Shown here in pieces: positions 6,556 through 62,952 of a DNA stretch of 64,000 nt; position 1 is the first letter of the stretch, and the number at the start of each line of letters is the position of its first letter. Position numbers and translations under genes: made by a program. The notes beneath the pieces were generated by a model that was not told the origin of the DNA, did not search any database, and worked only from the letters and a program-made list of their open reading frames with translations. The stretch comes from an uncultured Gemmatimonadaceae bacterium. GTDB lineage: Bacteria; Gemmatimonadota; Gemmatimonadetes; Gemmatimonadales; Gemmatimonadaceae. The stretch lies in NCBI GenBank assembly GCA_963781585.1, contig CAWAGQ010000004.1:384001-448000 (forward strand), read 5' to 3'.

Positions 6556-7113
6556 ATGTCCATCGCCGGTTCGTTTCTCCAGCGTACGCGCTACTACCTG
6601 GTGACGGAGTATCCCGCCAAGATCCGCTCGGCCGTGGAGGCGCTGCCCGCCGACCGCTTGTGGTGGAGGCCTAACGAGCAAAGCAACAGCGCGGGGAATC
6701 TGCTGCTCCACCTGTCCGGCAACGTGCGACAGTGGATTGTCAGTGGTGTGGGTGGCGTACCGGACGTCCGGAAACGCGACATGGAATTTGCGGCGAGGGG
6801 CGGGGCCGGGGCCCCCGAGATGCTCACGATGCTCGACGCGACGATGCGCGAAGCGGATGCCGTCATTCGCGGGCTCATGCCGAGCGAGCTGGTGGAGCGA
6901 CGAACGATCCAGGGACGTGACACCACCGTATTCGAAGCGCTGTACCACGTCGTGGAGCATTTCTCCGGACACGCGGCGCAGATCATTCTGTTGACGAAGA
7001 TGATGGCTCCGGGATCGATCCGTTTCTACGACGATGCCGACGGACTGGCCCGCCCCAATTTCCTGGGTCCGGGGAAGTTCGAGATGGGAGACCGCCGAAG
7101 CCCCGGCGCCTAG
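6556..7113 (+). CDS. DinB/DUF1572-like four-helix metalloprotein
   Basis: LWWRPNEQSNSAGNLLLHLSGN and HVVEHFSGH..QI His motifs. Confidence 0.82.
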   Translation: MSIAGSFLQRTRYYLVTEYPAKIRSAVEALPADRLWWRPNEQSNSAGNLLLHLSGNVRQWIVSGVGGVPDVRKRDMEFAARGGAGAPEMLTMLDATMREADAVIRGLMPSELVERRTIQGRDTTVFEALYHVVEHFSGHAAQIILLTKMMAPGSIRFYDDADGLARPNFLGPGKFEMGDRRSPGA

Positions 7114-7241
7114 TCGCTCACATCGCGCGACCTCGAGGCTCGAGATACGGAAACAACGCTCCCGCCCGAGTCAGGTGTTGCCGCCTCGGCCCGGCAACGG
7201 CCGGTCATGGGCCAGCAGCGTCGATGGAACCGACCGCTGCT

Positions 7242-8033
7242 TCAACCGCCTTGACGTTCGAGGGCCTTCACCTCATCCCAGAGCGCGTCCAGGACGCTGA
7301 GCCCCCCGGCCGACACGTCGATCCCGCGCTCGGCAGCGAGCCGCTCCACCGCGCCGAAGCGGCGAGCGAATTTCGCGTTCGCGCGATCGAGAGCGATCGC
7401 AGCGTGCACGCCGGCCTTTCGGCACAGATTCACTACCGCGAATAGCAGGTCGCCCAGCTCGGCCTCGAGTTCTCCTCGCGGCTCGGCCTGTGTGGATGCG
7501 TACGCCGGTGCCTCCGGTGGAGTCGCCGGCAAGTGTGCGCGTACTTCCCGGAGTTCCTCTTCCACCTTGTCCGCGGGTCCACTCACGTCGCTCCAATCGA
7601 ATCCCACGCCGGCGGCGCGATCCTGCAGGCGATGCGCCCGATGCAACGATGGCAGGCCCGCCGGCAGGCCCGCCTCGATCGACGTGCGCGTACTCGCCTT
7701 CATGCGTTCCCAGGGCTCGCGCACCGAGCCGCTGTAGAGGTGGGGGTGCCGCCGACGCATCTTGGCGATCAGGCCGCCGGCCACCTGGCCGATGTCGAAC
7801 GCGCCGCGTTCTTCGGCGACCACGGAATGGAAGAGTACCTGGAGCAGTACGTCGCCGAGCTCTTCACGCATGGCGCCGTCGTCGGCGTCCCGGATGGCCT
7901 CATCGAGTTCGTTTGCCTCCTCGATGAGATAGGGCCGCAGCGAGTCGTGCGTTTGCGCGGCATCCCACTCGCAGCGGCTGCGAAGATCGCGCATGAGCGC
8001 GAGCGTATCTTCAAGTGTGGCCTTAGCTTGCAT
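7242..8033 (-). CDS. mazG: Nucleoside triphosphate pyrophosphohydrolase MazG
   Basis: CEWD..QTH.SL.PYLIEE, EELGDVLLQVLFH, GFDW, ELGDLLF, AN.KF.RRF. Confidence 0.94.
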   Translation of the reverse strand: MQAKATLEDTLALMRDLRSRCEWDAAQTHDSLRPYLIEEANELDEAIRDADDGAMREELGDVLLQVLFHSVVAEERGAFDIGQVAGGLIAKMRRRHPHLYSGSVREPWERMKASTRTSIEAGLPAGLPSLHRAHRLQDRAAGVGFDWSDVSGPADKVEEELREVRAHLPATPPEAPAYASTQAEPRGELEAELGDLLFAVVNLCRKAGVHAAIALDRANAKFARRFGAVERLAAERGIDVSAGGLSVLDALWDEVKALERQGG

Positions 8034-8056
8034 AGGCTCCTCGGGTCGGGTATACT
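8028..8056 (+). promoter_or_regulatory. Putative sigma70 promoter of the alr operon, overlapping the mazG start codon
   Basis: TTGCAT-17 nt-TATACT. Confidence 0.6.
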
Positions 8057-8080
8057 ATGCCCCTCGCAATTCCCACGTCA

Positions 8081-12308: not shown

Positions 12309-13438
12309 TGCGCATCGGGATTCTCTCGTTAGGTTCTCTCGTGCTCGCGGTCGCGACCGTTCAGGGGCAGGGAGCGATCAGCACACAGGGGTTCGGCTAT
12401 CCGGCCGGCGGCGCGAGCACCAGAGCGGCCGCAGGCGGCGCCGCGTTCGCCGAATTCGACTTTGCGTCGCCGCGTAATCCCTCGAGCCTGCTGGCGTGGG
12501 GACGCGGTGGGCTGTACATCCAGTACGATCCGGAGCTGCGGTCGGTCGCGAGCGGAGGCAGTTCCGACAAGACCACCACCATCCGGTTTCCGATGATCGC
12601 TGCGGCCGCGCAGATCGGTCCCAGGACGGTCGTCTCGTTGTCGTCGTCCACGTTCCTGGACCGAACATGGGCCACGCGCGTGCGTGGCGGAGAGATACTG
12701 GGATCCGATTCGGTGGGCTTCTCCGAGTTCGTGCAATCGAACGGCGCCATCAACGACATCCGGTTGGCGGCATCAGTGTCTGTCTCGACCTGGTTCGCCG
12801 TTGGTCTTGGCCTCCACGCCTATGCCGGAGAGAATCGACTCCAGCTGCAGCGGACGTTCGACGACAGTCTCCGGTACGGCTCGATCGATCGCCTCCTCAC
12901 CCTGGGATACCAGGGCACCGGTGTCTCGCTCGGCGCTACCTGGAGACCGAGCCGGAACCTGGCGGTGGCGGGGTCGGCGCGCTCGGGAGGCACGTTTGAG
13001 ATGCGGCTGGCCGATTCCGTCATTGCGTCGGCCAAGGTGCCGAACCGGGTTGGATTCGGCCTGCGTTTCGACGGCCTGCCCGGCGCGAGTATCGCCGTCG
13101 GCGCGGAGCGAACCACCTGGTCCCGGATGTCGGCGCTGTCCTCGTCGTCGCTCGTGACCCGCGACACCTGGGAATACGACGTCGGGACGGAGCTCACCAG
13201 TCCGCACAGCGGCGCCGTCCCGGCGACGTTCTACCTCGGTTTTCGCTCGCGCCAGCTACCGTTCTCCTCCACAGGCGTCAACGTGTCGGAGCACATCTAC
13301 TCGGGGGGCGTGAGCCTCCCGTTGTCCGGCCCGCGAGCGGTCGCGGACCTTGCGCTGGAGCGCGCCACGCGTGGCACCGTGAGTGACGTCAGCGAACACG
13401 CGTGGATCGTGAGCGTGGCTCTCACCATCCGACCGTGA
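12308..13438 (+). CDS. Outer-membrane beta-barrel protein (OmpP1/FadL/PorV-like)
   Basis: Signal peptide, N-terminal G.STRA..GG.....NPSSL-type plug motif, alternating amphipathic strands; TGATG coupling. Confidence 0.68.
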   Translation: MRIGILSLGSLVLAVATVQGQGAISTQGFGYPAGGASTRAAAGGAAFAEFDFASPRNPSSLLAWGRGGLYIQYDPELRSVASGGSSDKTTTIRFPMIAAAAQIGPRTVVSLSSSTFLDRTWATRVRGGEILGSDSVGFSEFVQSNGAINDIRLAASVSVSTWFAVGLGLHAYAGENRLQLQRTFDDSLRYGSIDRLLTLGYQGTGVSLGATWRPSRNLAVAGSARSGGTFEMRLADSVIASAKVPNRVGFGLRFDGLPGASIAVGAERTTWSRMSALSSSSLVTRDTWEYDVGTELTSPHSGAVPATFYLGFRSRQLPFSSTGVNVSEHIYSGGVSLPLSGPRAVADLALERATRGTVSDVSEHAWIVSVALTIRP

Positions 13439-13444
13439 CCTCAC

Positions 13445-15879: not shown

Positions 15880-17213
15880 GCGGTCCCCGCGGAAGCGTTT
15901 TTGTCGAGACGTATGGTTGCCAGATGAACGTGAGCGACTCCGAGTTGATTCTCGGAAAGCTCTTGGCCGAAGGCTACGTCGCGGCCGAGGCGGCCGCTGA
16001 TGCGGACGTCATCCTGCTCAATACCTGCGCCATTCGCGATCACGCCGAGCAACGCGTGCTGGGCCGCCTGGGCGAGCTGAAGGGACAGATGCGGCCCCAC
16101 GCCGTGGTCGGCGTTCTGGGGTGCATGGCGCAGCGGCTTGGCCAGTCGCTCCTCGACCGCGCCCGGTTCGTGAGTCTCGTGATCGGTCCCGACGGATATC
16201 GCGCCCTCCCGGAGTTGCTGGAGCGGGCGCGCGCGGGTGAGCGCGCTCTGGAGACCGCGTTCGACCTGGAGGAGCACTACGAGGACTTTATCCCCCGCCG
16301 GTTCGACCGGGTGAAGGCCTGGATCCCGGTGCAACGCGGATGCGACTATCGGTGCACCTACTGCATCGTTCCCACCACGCGAGGTCCGGAACGGAGCCGC
16401 CGCCTCGCCGATGTGGTGCGGGAAGTAGAGGCGGTCGCGGCCGACGCGATGACCGAGGTGGTGCTGCTGGGCCAGACCGTCAACTCCTATCACGACGGGG
16501 CGTACGACTTTGCCGATCTGCTGCGGGCGGTCGGCTCGGTGCCAGGCATCCGGCGGGTGAGGTTCACGAGTCCGCACCCCTGCGATTTCACCGAGCGGGT
16601 GGTGGAGTCGATGGCCACGGTCGCGGCGGTCTGCGAACACGTGCATCTGCCCATGCAGTCCGGGTCGAGTCGGGTTCTGAAGCGGATGCTTCGACGCTAT
16701 ACGCGAGACGGATACATGGACGTGGTTCGACGGTTGCGAGCCGCGATTCCCGGCTTGAGTCTCACCACCGACGTGATCGCAGGATTTCCGGGTGAGACCG
16801 AGGAGGACTTCGATGAGACCCTGGATGCGGTTCGTGAGGTGGGGTTCGACGACGCCTTCACGTTCAGGTTTTCGCCTCGCGAGGGCACGCCCGCGACCCG
16901 CATGCCGGCCGCAGAGACCGTTCCCGACGACCAGGCGTCGGACCGACTGCAGCGGCTGATCGCGCTGGTACGGAGCATCTCGCGTGAGCACAACCTGCGG
17001 TTGTTAGGCGAGCGGCGCGAGGTGCTGGTGGAGCGGGCGGCGCGGCGCGGCGAGCTGCTCCAGGCTCGGACGCGCGACTTCAGGACAGTGCTTGTCCCAG
17101 GCGACGAGTCGATGGTAGGGGCGTACCTGCGGGTCGAGCTGAGCGGCACCACCGGGTCCACCTTTACCGGTGTCCCTGTAACCGAACGGTTTTCCCTTCC
17201 TCTCGCGGGCTAG
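15876..17213 (+). CDS. miaB: tRNA-i6A37 methylthiotransferase MiaB
   Basis: TYGCQMNVSDSE, NTCAIR..AEQ, CDYRCTYCIVP, LLGQTVNSY, RFTSPHP, TRAM-like C-terminus. Confidence 0.93.
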   Translation: MSGPRGSVFVETYGCQMNVSDSELILGKLLAEGYVAAEAAADADVILLNTCAIRDHAEQRVLGRLGELKGQMRPHAVVGVLGCMAQRLGQSLLDRARFVSLVIGPDGYRALPELLERARAGERALETAFDLEEHYEDFIPRRFDRVKAWIPVQRGCDYRCTYCIVPTTRGPERSRRLADVVREVEAVAADAMTEVVLLGQTVNSYHDGAYDFADLLRAVGSVPGIRRVRFTSPHPCDFTERVVESMATVAAVCEHVHLPMQSGSSRVLKRMLRRYTRDGYMDVVRRLRAAIPGLSLTTDVIAGFPGETEEDFDETLDAVREVGFDDAFTFRFSPREGTPATRMPAAETVPDDQASDRLQRLIALVRSISREHNLRLLGERREVLVERAARRGELLQARTRDFRTVLVPGDESMVGAYLRVELSGTTGSTFTGVPVTERFSLPLAG

Positions 17214-17654: not shown

Positions 17655-19871
17655 GTGCCACTCGTCACACTGGCGTACCTTGCCGTCGCCGCCGGGCTCC
17701 TGATGGGGTTCGGCGGCGCGGTGCTGCTGGGGGCCGGGTGCGCCATCGCGCTCTTTGCCGCGGGCGTGCAGCGCCGTCAGGCGACGCCGTCGGTGTTGGG
17801 GGTGCTGGTGGTGGCCGCGGTAGCGCTGGCCCACTTCTCGGGGCGCGCGGACGAGCGATGTGCGCGTGCCATCGCGGCAAGCGGGGCGGCGCGCGTTCGC
17901 CTCGGTGAGGACGTGCGGCCGCGCCGCAACGCGCGGGGCGTGGCGCTGGGAGCGGGATGCCGCGTGCCGGTGCGGGTGGGTGTCGATTCAGGACACGCGG
18001 TCGCGGGTGCGTTGGTGGACGTGCACGGCGAGAGCCGACGCGATGGCGGCATGGTCACGTTCACCGGTGCCCGGATTGCCGTTCGCGCCCAGCCCGGGGT
18101 GCTGGCGAAATGGCGGGCGCGCACCGGACGGACCATCGACGAGATCTACGGAGCTCAGGCGCCACTGGCGCGGGCGCTCCTGATCGCCGACGAACACGAC
18201 ATCGCGCCTGAGGTACGTCGCCAGTTCGCCGACGCCGGGATTATCCACATGCTCTCGGTCTCGGGTCTGCACGTCGGGATTCTGGCGGAAGCGGTGGCCC
18301 TTGCGGCGCTGCTGCTGGGCGCGGGTGTCCGGCGGGCCGAGGTGGCGGCGGTGGTGGTCACCGCGTGCTTCGTGCTGTTCGTGGGGGCGCCGGCGCCCGC
18401 GGTGCGGGCCGGCGCGATGTATGCGGCCGTGGTCGCGGCCCGGCGGCTGCAGCGTCCCACCTCACCGTGGGCGCTGCTCGCGTTAGGCGCGGCGGTTCCG
18501 CTGCTCGATCCGAGGGCGGTGCGCGAAGTGGGGTACCAGCTCAGCAGCGTGGGCATGGCGGGACTGATCGCCAGTGGTGCGCTGTTCCGGCGCCTGTCCT
18601 TCCCCAAAGCACCCGCCTGGACGCTGCGCGCGATGCGCGAGATGCTCGCGACCGTCGTGGCCAGCGCGGTCACGGCGCCGATCGTCGCCTGGCACTTCGG
18701 ACGGGTGAGCCTGGCCGCGCCGATCACCAACCTGGCGGCGGCCCCGCTGTTCGGCCTCGCGCAGCCCGCGCTGTTCGTGTCGCTGCTCTGCTTCCCGGTG
18801 CGCCCGGTGGCGCGGTTCGTGGCCGGCGGCACGGGCGTGCTGCTGGCTGCCATCTCGCGCGTGGCCGCCTGGGGTGCGTCCGTCCCGGGAGCGGCGCTGG
18901 ACGTGATGCCAAGCGCCTTCACCGCGGCACTGATGGCGGTTGCGGCCGGCGCCCTGATCACGACCTGCGCAGCCCGGCGGTGGGCGAGACCGGCGCTTGC
19001 GGGCATTGGCGCAGTGGCTACGGCGCTATGGTGGCCCTTGCTGGCCCCGTCAGGGACGCGGCTCGAGGTGCACATGATCGACGTCGGACAGGGGGACGCC
19101 ATCGCGCTGCGAACACCCGCCGGGCGATGGATCGTGGTGGACGCGGGGGACGCATGGCGGAACGGCGACGCGGGCGCGCGGATTGTCGCCCCCTACCTCC
19201 GGCGGCGCGGCGGAGACGTGGCGGCGCTGGTGCTCACGCATCCGCACAGCGATCACATCGGCGGGGCGGCGAGTCTGCTGCGCCTGACGTCGGTAGCGGC
19301 AGTCTACGATGGCGGTGTGGTGTACCCGAGCGACGTCTATGACTCGCTGCTGACGCGCACCCGGGCCGCGCATGTCGCCTGGCGCCTTGCCCGGACCGGC
19401 GACAGCCTCACGGTCGACGGCGTGCGCCTGCGGATTCTGGGTCCGGATTCGATCACCGCCGCACGGGCTCGGGATCCCAACGAAGCCAGCGTGGTGGTCA
19501 TGGCCGAGTACCGAGGCGCCCGTGTGCTCCTCACCGGCGATGCCGAGCGTGCCGAGGAGTCCCGGATACTCGATCGCTTCGGCGACGAAATACACGCGGA
19601 CGTGCTGAAGGTGGGTCACCACGGCAGCATCACCAGCAGCACGGCACCGTTTCTCGATGCTGTTCACCCGCGCGTGGCGCTGGTGAGCGTCGGCGCCGAC
19701 AACAGCTACGGCCATCCCAGCGCGCAGGTGATGCACGATCTGCAACGGCGGCAGGTGGAACTGCTGCGCACGGACCAGGACGGGACCGTTGTGGTGAGCA
19801 CCGATGGGAAAACGCTCCGCATTCGCACCGACGAGGCGTCGTGGGAGTTGCGAATCCGATCGGTGCGGTAG
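17655..19871 (+). CDS. comEC: DNA uptake channel ComEC/Rec2
   Basis: GIIHMLSVSGLHV competence motif, multiple TMs, metallo-beta-lactamase domain DVGQGDA, THPHSDHIGG, LKVGHHGS, NSYGHP. Confidence 0.94.
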   Translation: MPLVTLAYLAVAAGLLMGFGGAVLLGAGCAIALFAAGVQRRQATPSVLGVLVVAAVALAHFSGRADERCARAIAASGAARVRLGEDVRPRRNARGVALGAGCRVPVRVGVDSGHAVAGALVDVHGESRRDGGMVTFTGARIAVRAQPGVLAKWRARTGRTIDEIYGAQAPLARALLIADEHDIAPEVRRQFADAGIIHMLSVSGLHVGILAEAVALAALLLGAGVRRAEVAAVVVTACFVLFVGAPAPAVRAGAMYAAVVAARRLQRPTSPWALLALGAAVPLLDPRAVREVGYQLSSVGMAGLIASGALFRRLSFPKAPAWTLRAMREMLATVVASAVTAPIVAWHFGRVSLAAPITNLAAAPLFGLAQPALFVSLLCFPVRPVARFVAGGTGVLLAAISRVAAWGASVPGAALDVMPSAFTAALMAVAAGALITTCAARRWARPALAGIGAVATALWWPLLAPSGTRLEVHMIDVGQGDAIALRTPAGRWIVVDAGDAWRNGDAGARIVAPYLRRRGGDVAALVLTHPHSDHIGGAASLLRLTSVAAVYDGGVVYPSDVYDSLLTRTRAAHVAWRLARTGDSLTVDGVRLRILGPDSITAARARDPNEASVVVMAEYRGARVLLTGDAERAEESRILDRFGDEIHADVLKVGHHGSITSSTAPFLDAVHPRVALVSVGADNSYGHPSAQVMHDLQRRQVELLRTDQDGTVVVSTDGKTLRIRTDEASWELRIRSVR

Positions 19872-21214: not shown

Positions 21215-22831
21215 ATGACCGACGACACAGACGCGCGTGCCACGCCGTCGGGGATCCCGGTCGAGAGAGTCTACGGTCCGGACGACCTGGCCCCCGACTA
21301 TCGCCAATCGTTAGGCGATCCGGGACGCTTCCCGTTCACCCGCGGCATCCAGGCCACCATGTACCGCGGCCGGCTCTGGACCATGCGCCAGTACGCGGGC
21401 TTCGGAACTGCCGCCGAGACCAACGCCCGGTTCCGGCACCTCCTCGACGCCGGGCAGACCGGCCTGTCGGTGGCCTTCGATCTGCCGACGCAGATGGGAC
21501 TCGACTCCGACGCTCCGCTGTCGCGTGGCGAAGTCGGGCGGGTGGGGGTGGCGATCGATTCGGTCGAGGACATGCACGTCCTCCTGGCCGATCTCCCACT
21601 CGAAGCGGTGACCACCTCCATGACCATCAACGCCACGGCGGCCACGCTGCTGGCGATGTACATCGTGGTCGCCGAAGAGCGCGGCATCGACCGTGCCCGC
21701 CTCGGCGGCACCGTGCAGAACGACATCCTCAAGGAGTACATCGCTCGCGGAACCTACATCTATCCCCCCGGCCCCAGCCTGCGACTCACCACCGAGGTGT
21801 TCCGCTTCTGCGCCGCCGAGGTGCCGAGCTGGAATCCGATCTCCATTTCCGGCTATCACATCCGCGAGGCGGGCGCGACCGCCGTGCAGGAGCTCGCGTT
21901 CACCTTCGCCAACATGCTCGAGTACGCGCGTGGCGCGGTGGAGGCGGGCCTGCCGGTCGACACGTTTGCACCGCGGTTTTCGTTCTTCTTCGCGTCACAT
22001 AACGACTTGTTCGAGGAAGTAGCGAAGTTCCGCGCCGCCCGACGGCTGTACGCCCGCCTGATGCGCGAGCAATTCGGAGCGTCGGATGCCACCTGCCGCC
22101 TGCGCTTCCATACTCAGACCGGCGGCGTAACGCTGACCGCGCAGCAGCCCTTGAACAACGTGGTTCGAGTCACCGTCCAGGCGCTGGCGGCGACGCTCGG
22201 AGGCACCCAATCGCTCCATACCAACGGCTACGACGAAGCGCTGGCCCTGCCTGGCGAGCAGGCGGCGACCCTCGCGTTGCGAACGCAGCAGCTCATCGCG
22301 CATGAGTCCGGGATCGCGAATACGGTCGATCCGATGGCCGGCAGCTTTTACGTCGAACATCTGACCGACGAACTGGAGCGCCGCGCCTGCGAACTGCTGT
22401 CGCGGATCGACGCGCTCGGCGGGGCCGCGCGCGCCATCGCGGCCGGTTTCGTTCAGGAGGAGATCGCACGGAGCGCCTGGGAGGCGCAGCAGCGCGTGGA
22501 GTCGGGAGCCGCCACCGTGGTAGGCGTGAACCGCTACCTGGACGACCAGCCGGCTCCCATTCTGCCCCAGCCCGATTTCTCGCAGCTCGAGCGCGAGCAG
22601 ATCGAACGCGTGCGCGCGCTCCGGGATCGGCGCGACGCGGCAGGCGTTCGATCGGCGCTGTCCGCGCTGCGCGGCATCGCCCGGTCCTATCGCGATGACT
22701 CGTCTTCCGCGGTTCTGTCGAGGCCTCCGGTCGTTCCTGCCATCCTCGGGGCCGTGCGGGCGCGGGCGACGGTTGGCGAAATCTCGCAGGCGCTGGCCGA
22801 GGAGTGGGGTGCCCACGACCACGCGGGCTAG
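21215..22831 (+). CDS. Methylmalonyl-CoA mutase family, substrate-binding (large) subunit lacking the B12-binding domain
   Basis: [47 protein letters not shown]; no DxHxxG C-terminal domain. Confidence 0.92.
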
Positions 22832-24983: not shown

Positions 24984-25065
24984 CGTCGCCAGGTTCCGCC
25001 GGTGACGCTCGGAGAGATTCCCGCGCCGCGCTCGCGGTTAGGCGCCGTCCCCGTTTCCCTGTCGC

Positions 25066-27014: not shown

Positions 27015-27242
27015 AGTCCACATGCGTGGCCCTCCCGATGCGGCGTTAGGCGGCAACCTGGCAGCGTCAGCGGCCGCCGCGCGCGTCCCGCGGGCATTTG
27101 CCGACCCGGCCCTCAACCTGACGCAGGTGCGGGTCGCCCCCGGGGTCGGACGCTCCTTGGGCGAGGTCCGGACGCTCAACTCGTTTGGTCCGGACCGCGC
27201 CGACGACGCCGTGGTGTTCGCCGCACTCGGGGCGCGTGCGCA

Positions 27243-37684: not shown

Positions 37685-38857
<1,173 letters not shown>

Positions 38858-49348: not shown

Positions 49349-52000
<2,652 letters not shown>

Positions 52001-52027: not shown

Positions 52028-52561
52028 GTGACGCCAGGCAAGTCGACCGGCCCGGCCCCGGGTGGACACGGCGCCCCGAACGCGATCGCGCTGATGCGTC
52101 AGGCGCTCGATCTGGCGCGCGAGGCCGCGGCGGCGGGCGACGTGCCGGTCGGCGCGCTCTTGGTGTGCGGCGACCGGGTTCTCGGGCGCGGACAGAACCG
52201 CACGCTCCGCGACCAGGATCCCACGGCGCACGCCGAAGTCATCGCCCTGCGCGAAGCCGCCGAGTCGTTAGGCAGCTGGCGCCTGAGCGAGTGCGACCTG
52301 TACGTCACGCTCGAACCCTGCGCCATGTGCGCCGGGGCGCTGGTGCTGGCCCGTGTGCGTCGGGTGGTGTTCGGCGCCTGGGACGACAAGTCCGGGATGG
52401 CCGGCAGCGTCGGCGACCTGTTACGGCATCCCCGTCTCAACCATCACCCCGAGGTGCGCGGCGGGGTGCTGGCGGACGACTGTGGTGCGGTGCTGAAGGC
52501 GTTCTTCCTCGCGCGCCGATCACCTGCCGCGCAGGTTGACTATCTCCGCAAGCCCCAATAA
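52028..52561 (+). CDS. tadA: tRNA adenosine(34) deaminase
   Basis: VPVGA, DPTAHAE, LYVTLEPCAMC, LNH. Confidence 0.92.
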   Translation: MTPGKSTGPAPGGHGAPNAIALMRQALDLAREAAAAGDVPVGALLVCGDRVLGRGQNRTLRDQDPTAHAEVIALREAAESLGSWRLSECDLYVTLEPCAMCAGALVLARVRRVVFGAWDDKSGMAGSVGDLLRHPRLNHHPEVRGGVLADDCGAVLKAFFLARRSPAAQVDYLRKPQ

Positions 52562-52564: not shown

Positions 52565-52576
52565 ACGCGTCCCGAA

Positions 52577-53908: not shown

Positions 53909-53951
53909 CGATGCGGTGAGAGGGACCGGCCGGGGCGGAGTCGGGATCGCC

Positions 53952-54614: not shown

Positions 54615-54637
54615 TACTTCCCTCACCCGAATCGGTC

Positions 54638-55615
54638 GTGACGGCGCCCCGGGCCCCGGCGCGCGCGCGCGTGCATCGCCACCCGATGCGCGTGGTGACC
54701 CGGCGCACCGGTCTCAGCGCCGAGCTGCTGCGCGTCTGGGAGCGCCGGTACCACGTGGTGACGCCCGGGCGCACGCAGACCGGGCGTCGTCTGTACTCCG
54801 ACGCCGAGATCGAGCGCCTGCGCCTGCTGTACCGGGCCACGCTGGCCGGGCGCAGCATCGGCCTGATCGCCGGCCTGTCGATGCCGGCTCTGACCGCGCT
54901 GGTGCGGCAGGACGCCGAAGCGGAGCAGGGCGCGGCACGCGCTCCGGTGGCGCCGCCTAACGCGCCGGAGGCCGGCCGGTTCGTCGATCAGGCGCTGCGG
55001 GCGGTGGAGCGGTTCGACGCGCTGGCGCTCGATACGGCGCTGCGGCGCGCGGTGGTCGCGCTCTCGGCGGTCGCCTTCCTCGACGACGTGGTGGCAGTGG
55101 TGCTGGAGCGCGTCGGGGCGCGGTGGCGTGACGGCACGCTGCGGCCGGCACACGGCCATTTCGCCACCGCCGTGGTGCGCCGCGTGCTCGACCGCGTCAC
55201 CGAAACGACGTCGGTGCCGGGCGCGGCGCCGAGAGTGCTGCTGGCGACGCCGGCCGGGCAGCTTCACGAGCTGGGGGCGATGCTCGCCGCCGCCGCGGCC
55301 GCCGCCGAAGGCTGGTCGGTCACCTACCTCGGCGCCAACATACCGGCCGAGGACATCGCCGAAGCCGCGGTGGCGATTCGCGCGCGGGTGGTGGGTCTGA
55401 GTCTGGTCCATCCGCCTAACGATCGCGGGGTGAGCCACGAACTGCGGCGGCTGCGGACGCTGCTGCCGGTCACGATCGCGCTGGTGGTGGGCGGCGCGGC
55501 GGCCGGGGCGTACCGGGACGTGCTCGACGCCATCGGCGCGAAGCACATGAGCGATCTGCGCGCCTGGCGCGCCGATCTCGAGGAGATGACCCGCCGCCGT
55601 CGGCGCGCCGGCTGA
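54638..55615 (+). CDS. MerR-family regulator with cobalamin-binding-type domain (CarH/LitR-like)
   Basis: TGLS..LLRVWERRY..V.P.RT..G.RLYS HTH; VG..W..G.L.....H; TP.G..HELG; YLG.N.P. Confidence 0.88.
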   Translation: MTAPRAPARARVHRHPMRVVTRRTGLSAELLRVWERRYHVVTPGRTQTGRRLYSDAEIERLRLLYRATLAGRSIGLIAGLSMPALTALVRQDAEAEQGAARAPVAPPNAPEAGRFVDQALRAVERFDALALDTALRRAVVALSAVAFLDDVVAVVLERVGARWRDGTLRPAHGHFATAVVRRVLDRVTETTSVPGAAPRVLLATPAGQLHELGAMLAAAAAAAEGWSVTYLGANIPAEDIAEAAVAIRARVVGLSLVHPPNDRGVSHELRRLRTLLPVTIALVVGGAAAGAYRDVLDAIGAKHMSDLRAWRADLEEMTRRRRRAG

Positions 55616-55787: not shown

Positions 55788-58400
55788 GTGACTCCTGAAG
55801 TCGACCTAACCGAGACTCTCGAACGTCTCCAGGCCACGCTCAACGACCGATACAGCGTCGAGCGGGTGCTCGGGCGTGGAGGCATGGCCACGGTCTTTCT
55901 GGCCAGGGACGTGCGGCACGATCGCGAAGTCGCGATCAAGGTCCTGCACCCCGACCTTGCTGCCACGATCGGCGGCGACCGTTTCGAGCGCGAGATCCGA
56001 CTCGCCGCCAAACTGCAGCACCCGCACATCCTCGGTATGTACGATTCGGGCGTCGCCGATGGCCTTCTGTACTACGTGATGCCGTTCGTCCAGGGGGAGT
56101 CGTTGCGTGATCGACTCGAGCGCGAGGGACAGCTCCCCATCGACGACGCGCTGCAGATCACGCTCGAGGTCGCCGACGCCCTCGGATACGCGCATCAGCA
56201 GGACATCGTCCACCGCGACATCAAGCCCGAGAATATCCTCCTCGCAAACGGCCATGCCCTCGTGGCCGACTTCGGGATCGCGCGGGCGGCGCACGATGGC
56301 GGTGGTCAGAAGCTGACGCAGACCGGCATGGCGCTCGGCACACCCGTCTACATGAGCCCCGAACAGGCGTCGGGTGAAGCGGTCGGTCCCGCGGCCGACA
56401 TCTATAGTCTGGGCTGCGTGCTGTACGAGATGCTCGCGGGCGAACCGCCGTTCACCGGCAAGAACGCCATGGCGATCATGGCCCGGCACGCGATGGAGGG
56501 CGTGCCGAGCGTCCGGATCATCCGGGCCTCGGTGCCGGAGGAGGTGGAGGAGGCGATCCTCGCGGCGATGGAGAAGGCGGTCGCCGACCGGCCGAAGTCG
56601 GCGGCCGAGTTTGCGGCGATCCTTGGCACGCCGCTCGGCTCCACAGCCATGCGTCGCGTCACGATGCGCCACACGGCCGCTCGGCGGGTTTCGGGCGCAG
56701 GGCTTCGTACTTTCGCGCAAGCAGGCCCGGTCTGGAAGCGGCCGTGGGTGCTCGGGGGCACCGCGGCCGCGGTCCTCGTGGCGGCGTTCTCGGCATGGAA
56801 GCTCGTTGGGCGGTCGTCTGCCGGCGCGACCGTCGCCTCCGCCGATCCACGCGCCTGGGTGGTCGCGGTGCGCTACCTCGAGGACGGCTCGTCAGGGCAC
56901 GAGTTCGGTGACGTGGCCAGCCGCCTGACCGAGGCGCTGATCGGAGACCTTCAGCAGATCCCCAGGCTCACCGTCCGGACTCGCGGTGCCGTGGCGCCAT
57001 TTCGCGACGCGGATGTCACGCGGGACAGCATCGCTCGCGCGCTCGACGTCGGGACGCTCGTCGAGGGCTCGGTGCAGCCCGACGGGAAGGACAAGGTCAC
57101 CATCTCGACCCGGCTGTACGACGCCAACGGCACGGACCTCGGGGTGCGGAAATCGATTACCGTACCCCGCGACTCGCTCTTCCTGGCCGAGGACGCCGTT
57201 GCCGCGGAAGTGGCCGCCTCGCTGAAGCAGCGGCTCGGCAGCGAGATCGAGCTGCGTACCACGCGCGCCGGCACGCGGAGCATGGCGGCCTGGACGCTGT
57301 TCAGCCGCGCCGAGAAACTGCTGGACGATGCGCAGGCGCTACTGAGGGCGAATTCCGACAGCAGCGCGATGCTCGTCGCGCTGACTGATTCGCTGTTACG
57401 TCAGGCGGAGTCGAGCGATGCCACGTGGATCGAGCCGAAGCTCCTGCGCGGGGAGGCCGCGCTGCACCGCGCCCGCCTGGCGAGCATCGCCCTGGAGCAG
57501 AACCGCGGAAGTGTCGAACAGGTGAGCCGGCTCCTCGACACGGCGCTGGTGCGCGCGAACGACGCGATGGCCGCGGATCCGACGAGCGCGAGGGCGCAGG
57601 CGCTTCGCGGGACCGTGGAGTACGCCAAGTGGCGTGATCGTGCGCTGTCCGACGCCGTGCGCCACGGCTTCCTCGACAATGCCCGCAACGACCTGGAGTC
57701 GGCGGTGCAGCGCGACCCCCGGATCGCGAGCGCCGACGTGACACTGAGCAACCTGTATTACGACGAGGAGGACGTTCCGACCGCGAACAAGTACGCCCGG
57801 GCGGCCTACGAAGCCGACGCCTTCCTCTCGAACACGGCAGGAATCCTGGTGCGACTCTTCTGGACGTCGTACGATACGAACCTCCTCGCCGACGCCCGGA
57901 AGTGGTGCGACGAGGGAGCGAAGCGATTTCCGACGAACTACAATTTCGCGATCTGCGGGCTCTGGTTGATGCTGATTCCGAATGCGGAGCCCGACGCTGC
58001 CAGGGCCTGGAGCCTGGCGGCGCGCGTCGACTCGCTGGCGCCCCAGACAACGAAGTCCTTTCAATCACACCTGGCACGCATGATCGTGGCGGGGGTGATT
58101 GGTCGGGCCGCGAAGGCGGCGCCGATCGCCGGCCAGCAAGCAGCCCTTCGCGACAGCGCGGAGAATGTCATCGCGAGTGCCCGCGCTGATCCCACCATCG
58201 ACCCGGAAGGCGAGCTGCCCGGCTACGAGGCGCTCGTGCGGACGCAGATGGGTGACTACGCCAGGGCGGTTACGATGCTGACGCAATACGTAGCCACGCA
58301 TCCCACGCACACATTCCTTGTCGGATCGAATGTGCACTGGTGGTGGAGGAGCCTGCAGAACCAGCCTGGGTTCCAGGCGCTGAAGGCCCGCGCGCGCTGA
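55788..58400 (+). CDS. Hanks-type Ser/Thr kinase with TM, TolB-N-like and TPR-like extracytoplasmic region
   Basis: LGRGGMATV, VAIK, HRDIKPEN, DFGIAR, GTP.YMSPEQ, DIYSLG. Confidence 0.93.
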   Translation: MTPEVDLTETLERLQATLNDRYSVERVLGRGGMATVFLARDVRHDREVAIKVLHPDLAATIGGDRFEREIRLAAKLQHPHILGMYDSGVADGLLYYVMPFVQGESLRDRLEREGQLPIDDALQITLEVADALGYAHQQDIVHRDIKPENILLANGHALVADFGIARAAHDGGGQKLTQTGMALGTPVYMSPEQASGEAVGPAADIYSLGCVLYEMLAGEPPFTGKNAMAIMARHAMEGVPSVRIIRASVPEEVEEAILAAMEKAVADRPKSAAEFAAILGTPLGSTAMRRVTMRHTAARRVSGAGLRTFAQAGPVWKRPWVLGGTAAAVLVAAFSAWKLVGRSSAGATVASADPRAWVVAVRYLEDGSSGHEFGDVASRLTEALIGDLQQIPRLTVRTRGAVAPFRDADVTRDSIARALDVGTLVEGSVQPDGKDKVTISTRLYDANGTDLGVRKSITVPRDSLFLAEDAVAAEVAASLKQRLGSEIELRTTRAGTRSMAAWTLFSRAEKLLDDAQALLRANSDSSAMLVALTDSLLRQAESSDATWIEPKLLRGEAALHRARLASIALEQNRGSVEQVSRLLDTALVRANDAMAADPTSARAQALRGTVEYAKWRDRALSDAVRHGFLDNARNDLESAVQRDPRIASADVTLSNLYYDEEDVPTANKYARAAYEADAFLSNTAGILVRLFWTSYDTNLLADARKWCDEGAKRFPTNYNFAICGLWLMLIPNAEPDAARAWSLAARVDSLAPQTTKSFQSHLARMIVAGVIGRAAKAAPIAGQQAALRDSAENVIASARADPTIDPEGELPGYEALVRTQMGDYARAVTMLTQYVATHPTHTFLVGSNVHWWWRSLQNQPGFQALKARAR

Positions 58401-58573
58401 GTCGTGCGAGACCTGGCCCGCGTTCCTGGTGCGCGAGTGGTCTCGACCAACTCCGATGGTGCCGATGCGGTGGTTGGGCCTAACTGTATGCGTACCACTG
58501 CCAAGCGGAATCACACGCGTGCGACGGGCAGCTGGCGATTCCTCCACTTGCAGTCCGGCGGTAAGCTTCCCCG

Positions 58574-59431: not shown

Positions 59432-59694
59432 AACTTTCGGCTCAGGACGTCTTTGATCGCCGCATTCTCCAGCGCGAGCTCGGCGTACATGCGTTTGAGC
59501 TTCGCGTTCTCCTGCTCCAGTTCCTTGAGGCGAGCCAGATCCTTCACGCTGGCCCCACCGTACTTCGACTTCCACAGAAAGTAGGTCGGTCGGCTGATGC
59601 CGTGCTTCCGCACAATCTCCGGCACCGGAACGCCGGCCTCGCCTTCCTTCAGAATCGCGACGATCTGCGACTCCGTGAATCGGGACTTCCGCAT
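59428..59694 (-). CDS. IS3-family transposase OrfA (HTH + leucine zipper)
   Basis: MRKSRFTESQIV.IL, RKHGIS..T...WKSKYGG, LKELE.EN.KLK. Confidence 0.93.
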   Translation of the reverse strand: MRKSRFTESQIVAILKEGEAGVPVPEIVRKHGISRPTYFLWKSKYGGASVKDLARLKELEQENAKLKRMYAELALENAAIKDVLSRKL

Positions 59695-59925: not shown

Positions 59926-61857
59926 ATGAAACGACTGCTCGCCTGCCTAACGATCCTTGGCCTCGCGGCATGCGCGGGAGGCGATGTTACCACTCCGACG
60001 CGAGTGCCGGCCGGGCCCGCCAGCTTCTCTATATCTGACGGTGCACACACGAACGGGAATCCGGATTTCTTCTTCCTGCCGCCGATGGTGTCGAGTCCGA
60101 CGTCCAATGCTAACTTTGACGCCAATGGCTTTGACGGGGGTCAGACGCCGCAGGTCGTGATCTGCACGGAAGCCGGGACAGGCGAGGCAAGCTTCGTTTC
60201 TGGTTGTGTGACCACTATCACCTCACTTCAGCTCTCGTCAGCCGACGTTTCATCCGGCGAGTACCACGTCAACTGGAAAGTTCCTGATTCAGACGTGGTG
60301 TTCTATCGCGTGGACGTACAGGTGGATGGCACGTCACTGGGCTATGCCGACCTCGAAACCGGGAGCAATGGTTCTCAGCTCAAGAACGTCACGACCGGCG
60401 ACTACGTGCCGCTCGTCGATGGCCGCACGCTTCCGATCAAGTTTCGGATCGAGAAGGGAGCGCTCTGCAGCCTGTCATCATTCGGATGCAACGGCTCCGG
60501 CGTAGTGAACCTGAGGAGCGGCGGTGAGGTAAAAGGCGATCATGGAGGCGTCAGGATTCCACCGCAGGGCAACGGCGGACCAACTACGATTACGGTTGCG
60601 AGCTGCCCCGACATACCGTCGGATCTCCGGCACTTCGGCAGTTGCGTCCGCGTGACGGCAAACCCGCCGCTGACCACTCCACTGACTGTGCCAGCGACCG
60701 TGTTCGTTTGCAACGCCGAGGCGGAAGCGAGTGTGCTTGGTCACCCCCAGGAGGACCGGGTCACGCTGCATCGCTACGATGCGCCCAGCACCCAAGCCCT
60801 GCCGCATGCGAGCGATGACTGCTTGCACCTGATTGGTGCTGTGCCCACGGTTGGCCAGATGTTCGCCAACCTCCTCCACGGTCGACTCAAGTCCGCAGGT
60901 CACGACCTCGTGGCGCTGGTGGGTCCGAAGCCGCTGTACGCGCTCCATCAGGGAGGAGGCGGCGAGTCCGTGGGCTTCAGTGACTTCCAGTTCCTGCTGC
61001 CGGCATGGATGGAGAAGTGCCTTGGCGACCACCAGGTGGCTGACGTTGGCGCAACGCTGTCGAGTCCACAGCCGACGGTGTGCGTTCGGGACGTGCTCGG
61101 GGATCCCGTGGCTGGGGCCACCGTGCACTTCGCCACCATGGACGGGTCCGTCGCACCCGCTTCTGTCACCACCGGCGTGAACGGGCAGGCCGCCGTGGAC
61201 TGGACGCTCGGAACCCTCGGTACAAATACGCTCACGGCGAGTGGCAACGGCTTGGCAGGCGACGATCACAACGGTCCGCGCTCTGGGGTAGATCCGTTCC
61301 AGCCGCTGGATCCGACCTTTGATGGAAGCAACGGACCGGCAGTGCCGGTGGTGACCGGCGCGGTCCAGTTCACGGCAACGGGTCAGCTGCCCTACGGCGG
61401 TGCGTCCGGATGGTCCTATCAGATTGACAACTCCCCGCCGGCCAACTGGTACTCGACGACGACGTCCCCATTCAGCGCTACGGGAAGCACGCCGTTCGGA
61501 AGCGCCAACACGGACTGCGACCTTAACAATGCGGGCTTTAGCACCGATTGGCCCTCGCTTCCACTCACCTACTTGTATGCCAGGAGATCCTTCACCCTGG
61601 CCACCGCAGCGACGGTGTCGATCGGAGTCGCGATTGACAACGACGTTCAGGTGTTTCTTGACGGAACAGACATCACCAGCAACAACGATCAATTGATGAC
61701 GCCGGTCAACGGCGTGCTTGTTCACGAAGGCTGCCCGACCCCCGACTGGGTCACGTTCCAGCGCGCGGTGGTTCCCGGGTCCCACATTCTCGCAATCCTC
61801 GCCAAGGATCGCGGAATCAGTTCGTATCTCGACGTGCGGGTGTCGATTCAGCCATAA
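59926..61857 (+). CDS. Large Cys-containing surface lipoprotein with Big-1-like Ig domain and C-terminal jelly-roll-like domain
   Basis: AGGAG RBS, lipobox LAAC, GDHQ...V.D..G.PVAGATV.F...T..NG.A...WTLG motif, Y.RRSF...IDND..VFLDG. Confidence 0.75.
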   Translation: MKRLLACLTILGLAACAGGDVTTPTRVPAGPASFSISDGAHTNGNPDFFFLPPMVSSPTSNANFDANGFDGGQTPQVVICTEAGTGEASFVSGCVTTITSLQLSSADVSSGEYHVNWKVPDSDVVFYRVDVQVDGTSLGYADLETGSNGSQLKNVTTGDYVPLVDGRTLPIKFRIEKGALCSLSSFGCNGSGVVNLRSGGEVKGDHGGVRIPPQGNGGPTTITVASCPDIPSDLRHFGSCVRVTANPPLTTPLTVPATVFVCNAEAEASVLGHPQEDRVTLHRYDAPSTQALPHASDDCLHLIGAVPTVGQMFANLLHGRLKSAGHDLVALVGPKPLYALHQGGGGESVGFSDFQFLLPAWMEKCLGDHQVADVGATLSSPQPTVCVRDVLGDPVAGATVHFATMDGSVAPASVTTGVNGQAAVDWTLGTLGTNTLTASGNGLAGDDHNGPRSGVDPFQPLDPTFDGSNGPAVPVVTGAVQFTATGQLPYGGASGWSYQIDNSPPANWYSTTTSPFSATGSTPFGSANTDCDLNNAGFSTDWPSLPLTYLYARRSFTLATAATVSIGVAIDNDVQVFLDGTDITSNNDQLMTPVNGVLVHEGCPTPDWVTFQRAVVPGSHILAILAKDRGISSYLDVRVSIQP

Positions 61858-61879
61858 GGTTGGTCTTGACAGACGGACT

Positions 61880-61910
61880 GGAAAGGGCGGCCCACCGGGC
61901 CGCCCTTTCC
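61880..61910. terminator. Perfect 14-bp hairpin, probable terminator
   Basis: GGAAAGGGCGGCCC-ACC-GGGCCGCCCTTTCC after the lipoprotein stop; short U tract. Confidence 0.7.
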
Positions 61911-62124
61911 CGCTCACCGACGACCGTGTATGCAGATTCTACGCCTCCTAGGTGCGAAGGCCTGCGGACACGACCGCCGCGGACGTCTGGACCGCTCGAC
62001 GATCCCGATGTGCGGATTACCTTCTCGATGACGGATCCACCACCGCAGATTCACCCGTCGGTCCGGAGCGGTCCCATCCGAACCCGCACAGATCGCGCCC
62101 TCGCAGCCATCTCGCGCTGAGTCC

Positions 62125-62952
62125 ATGCCCAACATCGGTTCCATGCACCCCTACGTGGTGCACGCTGTCATCGGATTCCTCATCGCCGGCATCATCTTCC
62201 GCCTCGCCTCGCTGGTCCCGCGCTGGAGTGCCCTGAATTATGCCGCGGCGTCGCTCCTGATCGTCGGGGCCGGCACCGCCGTCGTCGCGGTCCGGTCGGG
62301 AAGCGACGCCCACGGTCCCGTGGAACGGGTGCCGGGCGCGCGACAGGCCGTGCAGGACCACGAGGAATGGGGGAACCGCACCCGCAACCTCTTCCTCGTC
62401 ATCGCCGCCGTCGAGCTGGCTGCCCTGGCGCTTCCCTCGCGTCGCCGGCTCATTCACTATGCGTCTGCCACGTTAGGCATCGTCGGCCTCGGATTCATCT
62501 TCGAGACCGGCGACCTCGGCGGCGACCTCGTCTACTCCTACGCCGGAGGCATCGGAATCCGGACGGGCGATCCCGCGGACGTGGATCGGCTGCTGCTGGC
62601 CGGCCTCTACCAGGAGGCAATGAAGGACCGCCGCGAGAACCGTCCCGCCGACGCGGCACGCCTCATCGACGAAATGGGACGCCGCTTCCCGGACGCCGTC
62701 GACGTGGCGCTCCTCCGCGCCGAATCGCTGCTGCGCGATCAGCACGATCCCGTCGCCGCGCTGGCGGCGCTCGACTCCATGCAGCACCTCGCCGCCGACC
62801 CGCGCACACGCCGCAGCATCGCGCTCACGCGCGTCTACGCCCTGCTCGGCGCCGGACGCACCGACACCGCACGCATGGTCGTCGAGCGGCTCGCCGCCGA
62901 GAATCCCAACGTGGCTCGCTACAAGGCGCTCCTGGACTCCATCCCGAAGTGA
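62125..62952 (+). CDS. DUF2231-like membrane protein with TPR-like C-terminus
   Basis: HP.VVH..I, H...G, G.LGG.LVY..G.G and four TMs, then a helical domain. Confidence 0.72.
   Translation: MPNIGSMHPYVVHAVIGFLIAGIIFRLASLVPRWSALNYAAASLLIVGAGTAVVAVRSGSDAHGPVERVPGARQAVQDHEEWGNRTRNLFLVIAAVELAALALPSRRRLIHYASATLGIVGLGFIFETGDLGGDLVYSYAGGIGIRTGDPADVDRLLLAGLYQEAMKDRRENRPADAARLIDEMGRRFPDAVDVALLRAESLLRDQHDPVAALAALDSMQHLAADPRTRRSIALTRVYALLGAGRTDTARMVVERLAAENPNVARYKALLDSIPK

Follow-up and report, generated by a model that had tools for sequence, protein, structure and literature searches.

CGTTAGGY, a hyper-abundant DNA word of some Gemmatimonadaceae, and its possible role as an uptake-like self word

Hyper-abundant 'self words' are known from few bacterial groups, the Neisseriaceae, the Pasteurellaceae and the cyanobacteria, where they show DNA exchange or chromosome handling rewriting thousands of codons. 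A 64,000-nucleotide stretch of DNA from an uncultured Gemmatimonadaceae bacterium (contig CAWAGQ010000004.1, positions 384,001 to 448,000; G000:C4:384001-448000 in our numbering), which we refer to as the window, raises the question of whether such a word also exists in this family. An earlier note on the letters of this stretch had drawn attention to the motif CGTTAGGY, which is scattered over both strands and written into genes with rare codons, and had named an uptake sequence, a Chi-like signal, a protein-binding site and a modification site as candidate explanations. In the following, we trace this word through the genome, the family and the phylum and discuss what may read it. New in this work are the surveys of the family and the phylum, the tests of maintenance and spacing, the exclusion of several candidates and the identity of the word with the end of integron attC sites. 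Our literature searches turned up no description of this word; those by sequence letters returned primers or unrelated texts among the matches listed.

A word enriched beyond composition and codon usage

The window belongs to a 5.72-Mb genome bin of 17 contigs with 66-68% GC (G000), which the closest named ClpB loci assign to the Gemmatimonadaceae. Two of these contigs, C5 and C8, are syntenic over ~340 kb at 88.9% identity, and the bin therefore carries two congeneric genomes for that region; its stated contamination is 7.19%. All genome-wide counts given here include both contigs. Genes were predicted with a purpose-written codon-model caller, which yielded 4489 genes covering 83% of the bin, so that copies in genes missed by the caller count as non-genic.

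At all Markov orders from 1 to 4, the most over-represented octamer of the genome is CGTTAGGC, the commonest form of the word, with 1442 copies compared with 89, 44, 51 and 484 expected at orders 1 to 4. These copies are distributed over the forward (724) and the reverse strand (718). The earlier note had named beforehand the loss of this excess under a codon-preserving null as grounds for giving up its claim. When we shuffled synonymous codons within each gene, which retains both the protein and the codon usage, 43.1 +/- 5.9 genic copies were obtained over 20 shuffles (largest 56), compared with 1101 in the actual genes. By reading frame, the copies in the genome are distributed as follows:

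NCG-TTA-GGC, sense: 747 copies
G-CCT-AAC-G, antisense: 264 copies
GC-CTA-ACG, antisense: 61 copies
C-GTT-AGG-C, sense: 29 copies
CGTTAGGC outside gene calls: 341 copies

The most frequent of these frames dominates the use of the codon TTA, of which 747 among 1293 in the genome (58%) lie in the word. The other ground named in the earlier note for giving up its claim, an equal use of TTA before codons other than Gly, does not apply either: between NCG and GGC, TTA is chosen for 747 of 1977 leucine codons (37.8%), compared with 255 of 117065 (0.22%) away from both flanks. Likewise, CCT is used in 52% of cases in the antisense CCT-AAC context, against a baseline of 5.8%. The word is used at 747 of 4778 [SPTA]-L-G sites and at 264 of 817 x-P-N-[G..] sites, in each case more often than any other spelling. 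The effect on the proteome is small, with the tripeptides SLG, ALG and TLG occurring at 1.06-1.19 times their expectation.

The favoured word can be written as CGTTAGGY, with C strongly preferred over T at both ends. We looked for a longer motif around CGTTAGGC and found none, as its flanks carry at most 0.29 bits. Among the one-letter variants, CGTTAGGT is present in 183, TGTTAGGC in 79 and CGTCAGGC in 1519 copies. All three are also favoured at silent sites, as shown for CGTCAGGC by TCA (22.9% vs a baseline of 4.9%) and CCT (31.7% vs 5.8%); CGTCAGGC and CGTTATGC, which is enriched as well, represent weaker variants of the word. CGTTAGAC, with 14 copies, shows no enrichment. In summary, the word is enriched at the level of the DNA, on both strands and in every stop-free frame.

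Two further observations concern the vocabulary of this genome. The next most over-represented octamers are TTTGGCCT/AGGCCAAA and related TGGCCT words, with 331 copies where the models, according to type, predict 28-149. ARAGORN predicts 62 tRNAs, including tRNA-Leu(UAA), tRNA-Leu(UAG) and tRNA-Sec, as well as one with the anticodon TTA that is labelled 'Stop'.

Maintenance, spacing and distribution among relatives

Two pairs of sister sequences allow us to follow individual copies over time. Contig C4 aligns with the congeneric genome G001 over 394 kb, at 89.0% identity and 23.8% divergence at third codon positions; here, 76 of 99 copies are intact; for the main frame, the figures are 47 of 58 copies and 106 of 266 same-frame control octamers. 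The second pair, C5 and C8, is aligned over 340 kb at 88.9% identity, with 72 of 85 copies intact and, in the main frame, 46 of 51 vs 78 of 198 controls. Pooled over both pairs, 93 of 109 main-frame copies are intact vs 184 of 464 controls (Fisher p = 8e-19), and the silent position 2 of the word is changed in none of the 109 copies vs 103 of the 464 controls. Antisense CCT-AAC copies are kept in 25 of 37 cases, compared with 74 of 162 controls. All eight positions of the word are protected from change, the three silent ones included, which bears out the conservation at orthologous positions for which the earlier note had suggested a search. Third-position divergence at distances of 6 to 1500 bp is 0.22-0.25 beside used and unused sites alike, so that the conservation is a property of the word, not of the surrounding DNA. 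Where the sister genomes do differ, an exchange between C and T at position 8 is commonest (11 of 30). In another genus, g50, 14 of 20 aligned copies are intact between G055 and G138 at 84.3% identity.

The copies are also spaced in an unusual manner. The two main frames offer 2482 codon-compatible sites in the genome, of which 1011 carry the word. Neighbouring used sites occur at short distances as follows:

closer than 300 bp: 11 observed, 59.2 +/- 6.5 by permutation
closer than 600 bp: 45 observed, 117.5 +/- 8.5 by permutation
closer than 1000 bp: 103 observed, 180.3 +/- 10.1 by permutation

None of 1000 permutations gave values as low as those observed; sites that carry the word keep apart over distances of about 1 kb. 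Such avoidance is not predicted by a process that acts on each site separately, such as mutation or a short-patch repair bias, but it is predicted by a benefit that saturates per DNA segment.

The word has no replication polarity, a property that the earlier note had proposed to check. On contig C4, GC skew and gene strand switch near 580-740 kb, and genes on the leading strand carry 126 sense and 42 antisense copies, those on the lagging strand 34 and 14 (p = 0.58); intergenic copies number 27 on the leading and 18 on the lagging strand. In a sample of the denser genome G009, all four frames are filled (42/26/23/17), with 59 sense and 49 antisense copies.

For the survey of the family, we used 151 Gemmatimonadaceae genomes of at least 85% completeness from 64 genera, and classified genomes with at least 400 copies of CGTTAGGC as word-rich and those with fewer than 100 as word-poor; the panels include four unpublished word-poor genomes (G008, G042, G205, G232), on which no claim rests. 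By these thresholds, 46 genomes from 22 of the 64 genera are word-rich, with a maximum of 6360 copies in 5.1 Mb, 98 are word-poor, with counts below those of the reversed-word control, and only 7 fall in between with 100-399 copies. The trait is bimodal across the family and mostly uniform within genera, and among the rich genera the density ranges over 30-fold. Word presence is thus all or little among the genera of a single family. Beyond it, 11 further families of the phylum were surveyed with 92 genomes, all of which have fewer than 100 copies; G030, a genome from outside the family, has 345. In Gemmatirosa kalamazoonensis, both megaplasmids are word-rich, with 36 copies in 50 kb vs 0.71 expected and 15 copies in 25 kb vs 0.35.

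Wherever the word is frequent, it is the same word: it is the top octamer in samples of G009, G054 and G001. The positions differ, however. In a syntenic region, none of 24 copies in G009 coincides with a copy in G000, and two G009 positions are common to G005; the genera gained the word at different positions. No substitute word was found in word-poor genomes, as judged from 108 kb of G103 and 200 kb of G003. The top words of G103 stem from a local tandem heptamer, (GCTTTCT)n, which is present at several intergenic places in G103:C5:1-40000, each time preceded by a conserved 'GTTCACT'-like lead. We also considered G103 as a case of recent loss within g50 and rejected this, because it shares only 74% identity with G055 and keeps none of 21 aligned copies. 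Similarly, long same-strand runs of the word in G054 and G137 proved to be artefacts of match listing; contig C2 of G054 holds 27 copies on the plus and 18 on the minus strand.

The earlier note had ascribed the word to selection or biased accumulation acting on the DNA word itself. The codon-shuffle null, the shift with synonymous context, the conservation of silent positions and the avoidance between used sites all support this view, since each of them points to the DNA word rather than to the codons. What the data show is a force exerted on the double-stranded word as a whole, on a scale of roughly one copy for every kb of DNA or longer, and confined to some lineages. Drive linked to uptake or recombination is the best-known process with such properties.

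The word in the window and word-poor regions

Within the window, genes were named by Pfam searches of the gene calls, and the frames of the copies were derived by hand from the gene-call coordinates. The 25 occurrences of GTTAGGY counted earlier by eye, 16 on the plus and 9 on the minus strand, lie exactly where they had been placed, and 17 of them are CGTTAGGC; 100 dinucleotide-preserving shuffles of the window gave 3.57 +/- 1.97 (largest 9) and 1.01 +/- 0.98 (largest 5), respectively. The claim that each TTAGG has a G before it and a pyrimidine after it holds as well, since the 25 TTAGG of the window are these same 25 sites:

6669..6676, minus: CGTTAGGC, DinB/DUF1572 gene (6556-7113, plus), antisense G-CCT-AAC-G
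12327..12334, plus: CGTTAGGT, open reading frame (ORF) 12308-13438 without Pfam match, NCG-TTA-GGT
17002..17009, plus: TGTTAGGC, MiaB-like radical-SAM gene (15924-17213), NTG-TTA-GGC
18481..18488, plus: CGTTAGGC, comEC (17655-19871), NCG-TTA-GGC
21309..21316, plus: CGTTAGGC, methylmalonyl-CoA mutase gene (21215-22831), NCG-TTA-GGC
25037..25043, plus: GTTAGGC, preceding base not C, non-coding, flanked by argS (23340-24983) and by a gene for a pfkB kinase (25066-25986)
26804..26811, minus: CGTTAGGC, purM-like AIR (aminoimidazole ribonucleotide) synthase gene (25983-27014), antisense G-CCT-AAC-G
27044..27051, plus: CGTTAGGC, small ORF 27022-27249 without Pfam match, NCG-TTA-GGC
28851..28858, plus: CGTTAGGC, riboflavin synthase gene (28352-28963), NCG-TTA-GGC
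35308..35315, plus: CGTTAGGC, phosphotransferase system (PTS) IID gene (34797-35555), NCG-TTA-GGC
36424..36431, plus: CGTTAGGT, ptsI (35826-37589), NCG-TTA-GGT
38103..38110, minus: CGTTAGGC, metK (37685-38857), antisense xGC-CTA-ACG
40373..40380, plus: CGTTAGGC, ORF 39490-40602 without Pfam match, NCG-TTA-GGC
41047..41054, plus: CGTTAGGC, periplasmic binding protein gene (40899-41753), NCG-TTA-GGC
41840..41847, plus: CGTTAGGC, FecCD permease gene (41755-42729), NCG-TTA-GGC
42833..42840, minus: CGTTAGGC, ABC ATPase gene (42726-43517), antisense G-CCT-AAC-G
46648..46655, plus: TGTTAGGC, selB (46347-48194), NTG-TTA-GGC
49644..49651, plus: CGTTAGGT, clpB (49349-52000), NCG-TTA-GGT
52266..52273, plus: CGTTAGGC, deaminase gene (52028-52561), NCG-TTA-GGC
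54955..54962, minus: CGTTAGGC, MerR/B12-binding regulator gene (54638-55615), antisense G-CCT-AAC-G
55414..55421, minus: CGTTAGGC, MerR/B12-binding regulator gene (54638-55615) again, antisense G-CCT-AAC-G
55804..55810, minus: GTTAGGT (8-mer GGTTAGGT), Ser/Thr kinase gene (55788-58400), antisense xAC-CTA-ACC
58478..58484, minus: GTTAGGC (8-mer AGTTAGGC), non-coding, beside an IS3-family element (58574-59694)
59945..59952, minus: CGTTAGGC, lipoprotein-like ORF (start 59926), in its signal-peptide region, antisense TGC-CTA-ACG
62471..62478, plus: CGTTAGGC, DUF2231 membrane protein gene (62125-62952), NCG-TTA-GGC

As reported before, 22 of the 25 copies lie within called genes. The copy at 59945, located in an ORF whose start the gene caller had missed, is a 23rd genic one, which leaves two non-coding copies (25037 and 58478). 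Core genes do carry the word: by their Pfam names, these are the miaB-like and purM-like genes and those for riboflavin synthase, ptsI, metK, selB and clpB, along with comEC. The coding copies on the plus strand are read as TTA-GGY, as the earlier note had proposed, albeit in 15 instead of 14 cases, and the eight on the minus strand as CCT-AAC (five) or CTA-ACN (three). The insertion sequence at 58574-59694, on the minus strand, belongs to the IS3 family and comprises HTH_Tnp_1 and rve ORFs; it is word-free inside, and one 7-mer copy is found just beyond its end.

Elsewhere in the genome, some regions hardly use the word. The ~75 kb around dnaA, gidA/mnmG, yidC and mnmE at the cumulative GC-skew minimum (C8:283862-357436; C5:276646-324259) are nearly word-free, and the GC content at third codon positions (GC3) is 0.71-0.73 in this zone vs about 0.84 elsewhere. 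Across 278 windows of the genome, word density correlates with local GC (Spearman 0.46), and much of the scarcity near the origin is explained by the low GC3 and a small number of compatible contexts. A second desert, 38.7 kb at G000:C4:866742-905435, contains alaS, recX, recA, ftsK, a gene for a PilT-like ATPase, lptD and tatC. We considered such deserts as foreign DNA and discarded the idea in view of the core genes inside. The earlier note had suggested a search for depletion in mobile DNA; in genome-specific DNA, depletion was not observed: four blocks that do not align with G001 contain 10 copies in 34 kb, one of these blocks being merely an unfetched stretch.

What may read the word

Given these properties, we tentatively propose to regard CGTTAGGY as a self word of double-stranded DNA that is specific to certain lineages and resembles an uptake sequence; we hold this for a serious possibility, if somewhat short of an even chance. 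In this proposal, a sequence-specific DNA-binding component, most likely part of a DNA-uptake or transformation route, would prefer segments that bear at least one word. Homologous recombination would then swap word-less alleles for word-bearing ones. The word would owe its spread to transmission bias (molecular drive), like the DNA uptake sequences (DUS) of the Neisseriaceae and the uptake signal sequences (USS) of the Pasteurellaceae, and not to a benefit of each copy to the cell. A single word on each fragment would be enough, which would account for the mutual avoidance of used sites, and silent or conservative sites would be used first, i.e. [S/P/T/A]-Leu-Gly as NCG-TTA-GGC and Pro-Asn as antisense CCT-AAC. 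The word is similar to DUS and USS in several respects: it is short and non-palindromic, is enriched far beyond composition and codon usage, occupies both strands irrespective of the direction of replication, runs counter to codon preference in the genes that carry it, with little effect on tripeptide usage, is spaced more evenly than by chance, and is kept between close relatives, gained elsewhere in distant ones and confined to one family. Uptake machinery is encoded too, with ComEC, DprA, a PilQ-like secretin and type IV pilins in G000, DprA in 144 of the 151 family genomes and the PilQ-like secretin in all five genomes tested. Of the candidates in the earlier note, an uptake sequence remains the best fit in our proposal; the presence of comEC in the window, which it had cited, is not diagnostic, since ComEC is encoded in 142 of the 151 family genomes, rich or not. 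All eight genomes of the ComEC-less genera g18, g45 and g64 are word-poor.

Several observations weigh against this proposal. No reader was found: the ComP_DUS pilin profile (PF16732), other pilins not being profiled, matched weakly at best, in 18 of 46 rich genomes and in 41 of the 105 others. We rejected this pilin as the reader, as its hits are generic and without association, the one in G000 being an ordinary PilA-like pilin; in Neisseria, by contrast, the dedicated receptor is a minor pilin of the ComP type. Neither ComEC nor DprA, PilQ-like or ComEA-like genes separate rich from poor genomes, and our literature searches turned up no report of natural transformation in the phylum Gemmatimonadota. 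Inverted word pairs commonly serve as terminators in the case of DUS and USS. Here, where the earlier note had suggested looking for them, they are nearly absent, with only 48 of 1425 gaps between copies below 400 bp. Genes such as recA and ftsK are reported to be rich in uptake sequences in Neisseria and Haemophilus; here, the recA-recX-ftsK stretch is word-free. Furthermore, the word is shorter than DUS and USS, with 8 bp and no flanking consensus, two thirds of the family's genera lack it, and it forms no dialects, being the same in every rich genome sampled. Divergence near the copies, which we searched over flanks of 6 to 1500 bp for a trace of gene flow, is not lowered. A single selection strength on the word also predicts far less use of the sense frame than is seen: from the observed counts, the odds shift ~275-fold for NCG-TTA-GGC vs 5- to 18-fold in the other frames. 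Finally, the uptake model does not explain why the word, unlike DUS and USS, is identical to the integron core site, to which we return below.

The main rival to an uptake-like word is a cellular one, in which the word is the binding site of an intracellular chromosomal protein for architecture, segregation, repair or strand discrimination, and ordinary selection keeps about one site per kb or more. We consider this rather unlikely, albeit a real possibility, as is the nucleoid-protein site among the candidates of the earlier note. It would agree with the purifying maintenance, the even spacing and the equal use of both strands, with the megaplasmids of Gemmatirosa kalamazoonensis, which are as dense as a chromosome, with the nearly word-free zone around dnaA and with the failure of the tested uptake genes to track the word. 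However, each single site would be under very weak selection, and still the rarest codon has taken over 38% of the NCG-Leu-GGC contexts; the range of density over 30-fold among rich genera and the absence of the word from two thirds of the family speak against it as well, the scarcity near the origin largely reflects low GC3 and few compatible contexts, and no candidate protein was found. A function of this kind has been suspected for HIP1 (GCGATCGC), the highly iterated palindrome of cyanobacteria. Its role was long unknown and is now suspected to lie in transformation (PMC5861425, PMC13756078, bioRxiv 10.1101/2024.09.10.611283). HIP1 resembles the word as a hyper-abundant octamer with silent-site conservation, a spaced, non-random distribution and a patchy occurrence within one phylum, and differs from it in being palindromic and read by orphan methyltransferases. 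HIP1 abundance has further been correlated with type IV secretion genes (PMC13756078); following this lead, we tried type IV secretion as a correlate and dropped it, as VirB4 is present in only 3 of the 151 family genomes.

The remaining explanations posit a different kind of process or reader, and we judge all of them to have little chance. A context-specific mutation or repair bias, in which a deamination hot spot or a Vsr-type short-patch repair at Dcm sites makes the word without any benefiting reader, is highly unlikely. The commonest one-letter variants (CGTTAGGT, TGTTAGGC and CGTCAGGC) are transitions, as is the C/T exchange that prevails between sister genomes, and G000 encodes a fused Dcm-Vsr protein. 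Nevertheless, all silent positions are protected, the avoidance spans 300-1000 bp and thereby far exceeds any short repair patch, and the putative precursor CGTTGGGC is not drained (243 copies, observed/expected 0.7); the avoidance and the pooled position-2 data largely refute this reading. Dcm/Vsr relatives, which we rejected as a cause, occur in 9 of 46 rich genomes vs 26 of the 105 others, and g9, the densest genus, has none in its four genomes. A Chi-like recombination hot spot or an orienting signal for a translocating enzyme, similar to the FtsK-orienting polar sequences (KOPS) or SpoIIIE recognition sequences (SRS), has an extremely small chance of being correct. Chi sites occur in E. 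coli (GCTGGTGG) at a density similar to one per 4 kb. The word, an asymmetric octamer, has about this density in G000, and 167 of the 261 copies on C4 (64%) lie on the leading strand; this excess is due to gene orientation, as sense copies also prevail in lagging-strand genes. Its enrichment of 25- to 100-fold and its density of one copy per 0.8 kb in G009 are far above those of known Chi sites, RecC was detected in none of five genomes tested, and an AddAB-type PDDEXK_1 domain (PF12705, E <= 1e-12) is encoded in 30 of 98 poor but in just 4 of 46 rich genomes, with G000 not among the latter, so that the Chi-like signal considered in the earlier note finds little backing. The same extremely small chance applies to its modification-site candidate, the target of a DNA methyltransferase or of another base or backbone modification. 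5-methylcytosine and phosphorothioates are poorly seen by SMRT (single-molecule, real-time) sequencing. While HIP1 has been tied to methyltransferases (PMC4390886, PMC13756078), the SMRT methylome of the word-rich Gemmatirosa kalamazoonensis lists only RGATCY, ATGCAC and CCAGN7TCA and thus no m6A (N6-methyladenine) or m4C (N4-methylcytosine) motif matching the word (PMC3974934). In addition, the only C5-methyltransferase of G000, the Dcm-Vsr fusion, does not track the word and has no relative (E <= 1e-10) in 116 of the 151 panel genomes, G009 and G005 among them. Lastly, a signal at the level of mRNA or translation, in which a rare TTA in a fixed context slows or regulates translation, similar to the bldA-dependent TTA codons of Streptomyces, has next to no chance. 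It could draw on the 747 of 1293 TTA codons in the word and on the much greater use of the sense frame, but 325 genic copies are antisense and 341 lie outside gene calls, antisense CCT-AAC is both enriched and conserved, and sense and antisense copies are nearly equal in G009.

Two of these systems deserve a remark of their own. The Dcm-Vsr gene of G000 (C7:476337-478673) is a 779-aa ORF in which a helix-turn-helix region is joined to a C5 DNA methyltransferase and to a Vsr endonuclease; the downstream ORF, which runs off the end of the locus analysed, may encode the restriction endonuclease. The AddAB-type nuclease domain, present in only 38 of the 151 family genomes, is rarer in rich than in poor ones, a weak inverse lead from raw counts with kinship uncontrolled. 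Together with the absence of RecC from the five genomes tested, it seems that most of the family lacks both classical complexes for the resection of double-strand ends.

The identity with the integron core had not been noticed in the earlier note. GTTAGGC, which makes up most of the word, is the canonical integron core site, and it fits the R-box consensus GTTRRRY of attC and attI. In relatives with few copies (G021, G019 and G029), the word occurs in same-strand arrays just upstream of small ORFs, at intervals of ~0.4-1.3 kb with a few longer gaps. Each array copy is a textbook attC site, consisting of GCCTAAC, an imperfect inverted repeat and then CGTTAGGC; 36 of 48 attC-like sites end exactly in CGTTAGGC, and the variants are mostly CGTTAGAC (6 of 48). 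As only 16 of 65536 octamers hold GTTAGGC or its reverse complement, a chance identity with the core site is unlikely. One could imagine that an integron-type tyrosine recombinase reads the word as an R-box and that the genome has been seeded with secondary sites or decoys for IntI or a relative, which we regard as very unlikely. IntI is common in the family (92 of 151 genomes, including G000), but it does not track the word (32 of 46 rich vs 57 of 98 poor genomes, p = 0.20) and is encoded in none of the four g9 genomes, G009 showing only frameshifted pieces. Moreover, recombination at sites within core genes would be harmful, and the dispersed copies, 1101 of 1442 in frame inside genes, are without attC hairpin or partner box: the inverse core RYYYAAC, which lies 50-140 bp upstream in attC sites, does not accompany them, apart from a handful of minus/plus pairs, 60-135 bp apart, that resemble attC sites. 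Both attC sites and the dispersed word allow C as well as T as the final letter, but other variants differ: attC accepts CGTTAGAC, i.e. GTTAGAC, which the genome-wide word does not, and CGTCAGGC, in which the invariant GTT is broken, is accepted in the genome. Because of the lack of association with IntI, the lack of a hairpin and the differing variants, we keep the identity as an unexplained link and not as a mechanism. An alternative, which we rate as quite unlikely, is that the word is both an uptake or self-recognition tag and an integron core, with the uptake or recombination machinery sharing the sequence preference of attC ends.

G000 has an integron of its own, with intI at C7:185857-186859 on the minus strand and attC-like box pairs between 160 and 185 kb. 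It also contains three identical genes for a 303-aa tyrosine recombinase (C7:172407, C7:183006 and C13:309021), and five same-strand copies of the word are clustered at C13:313349-316813.

A signal of the kind known from Neisseriaceae, Pasteurellaceae and cyanobacteria is now also found in the Gemmatimonadota, an abundant yet little-studied soil phylum. Its on/off pattern over 64 genera of one family is ideal for a search for the reader by comparative genomics, and Gemmatirosa kalamazoonensis, a cultured, fully sequenced and word-rich strain, is open to direct tests. Were it an uptake signal, the word would indicate self-preferring natural transformation in a soil phylum for which we found no report of it, and adding the word to introduced DNA would provide a practical handle for genetics. 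If the identity with the core site is not due to chance, it would link two major routes of gene exchange. Should the word be both tag and core, no DNA of the community would be better tagged than cassette arrays, in which each cassette carries one word; transformation would then be mechanistically coupled to the exchange of integron cassettes. In a bolder form of this idea, thousands of chromosomal R-boxes might let an integron-type recombinase make cassettes of ordinary genes, which would bear on the unsolved origin of cassettes.

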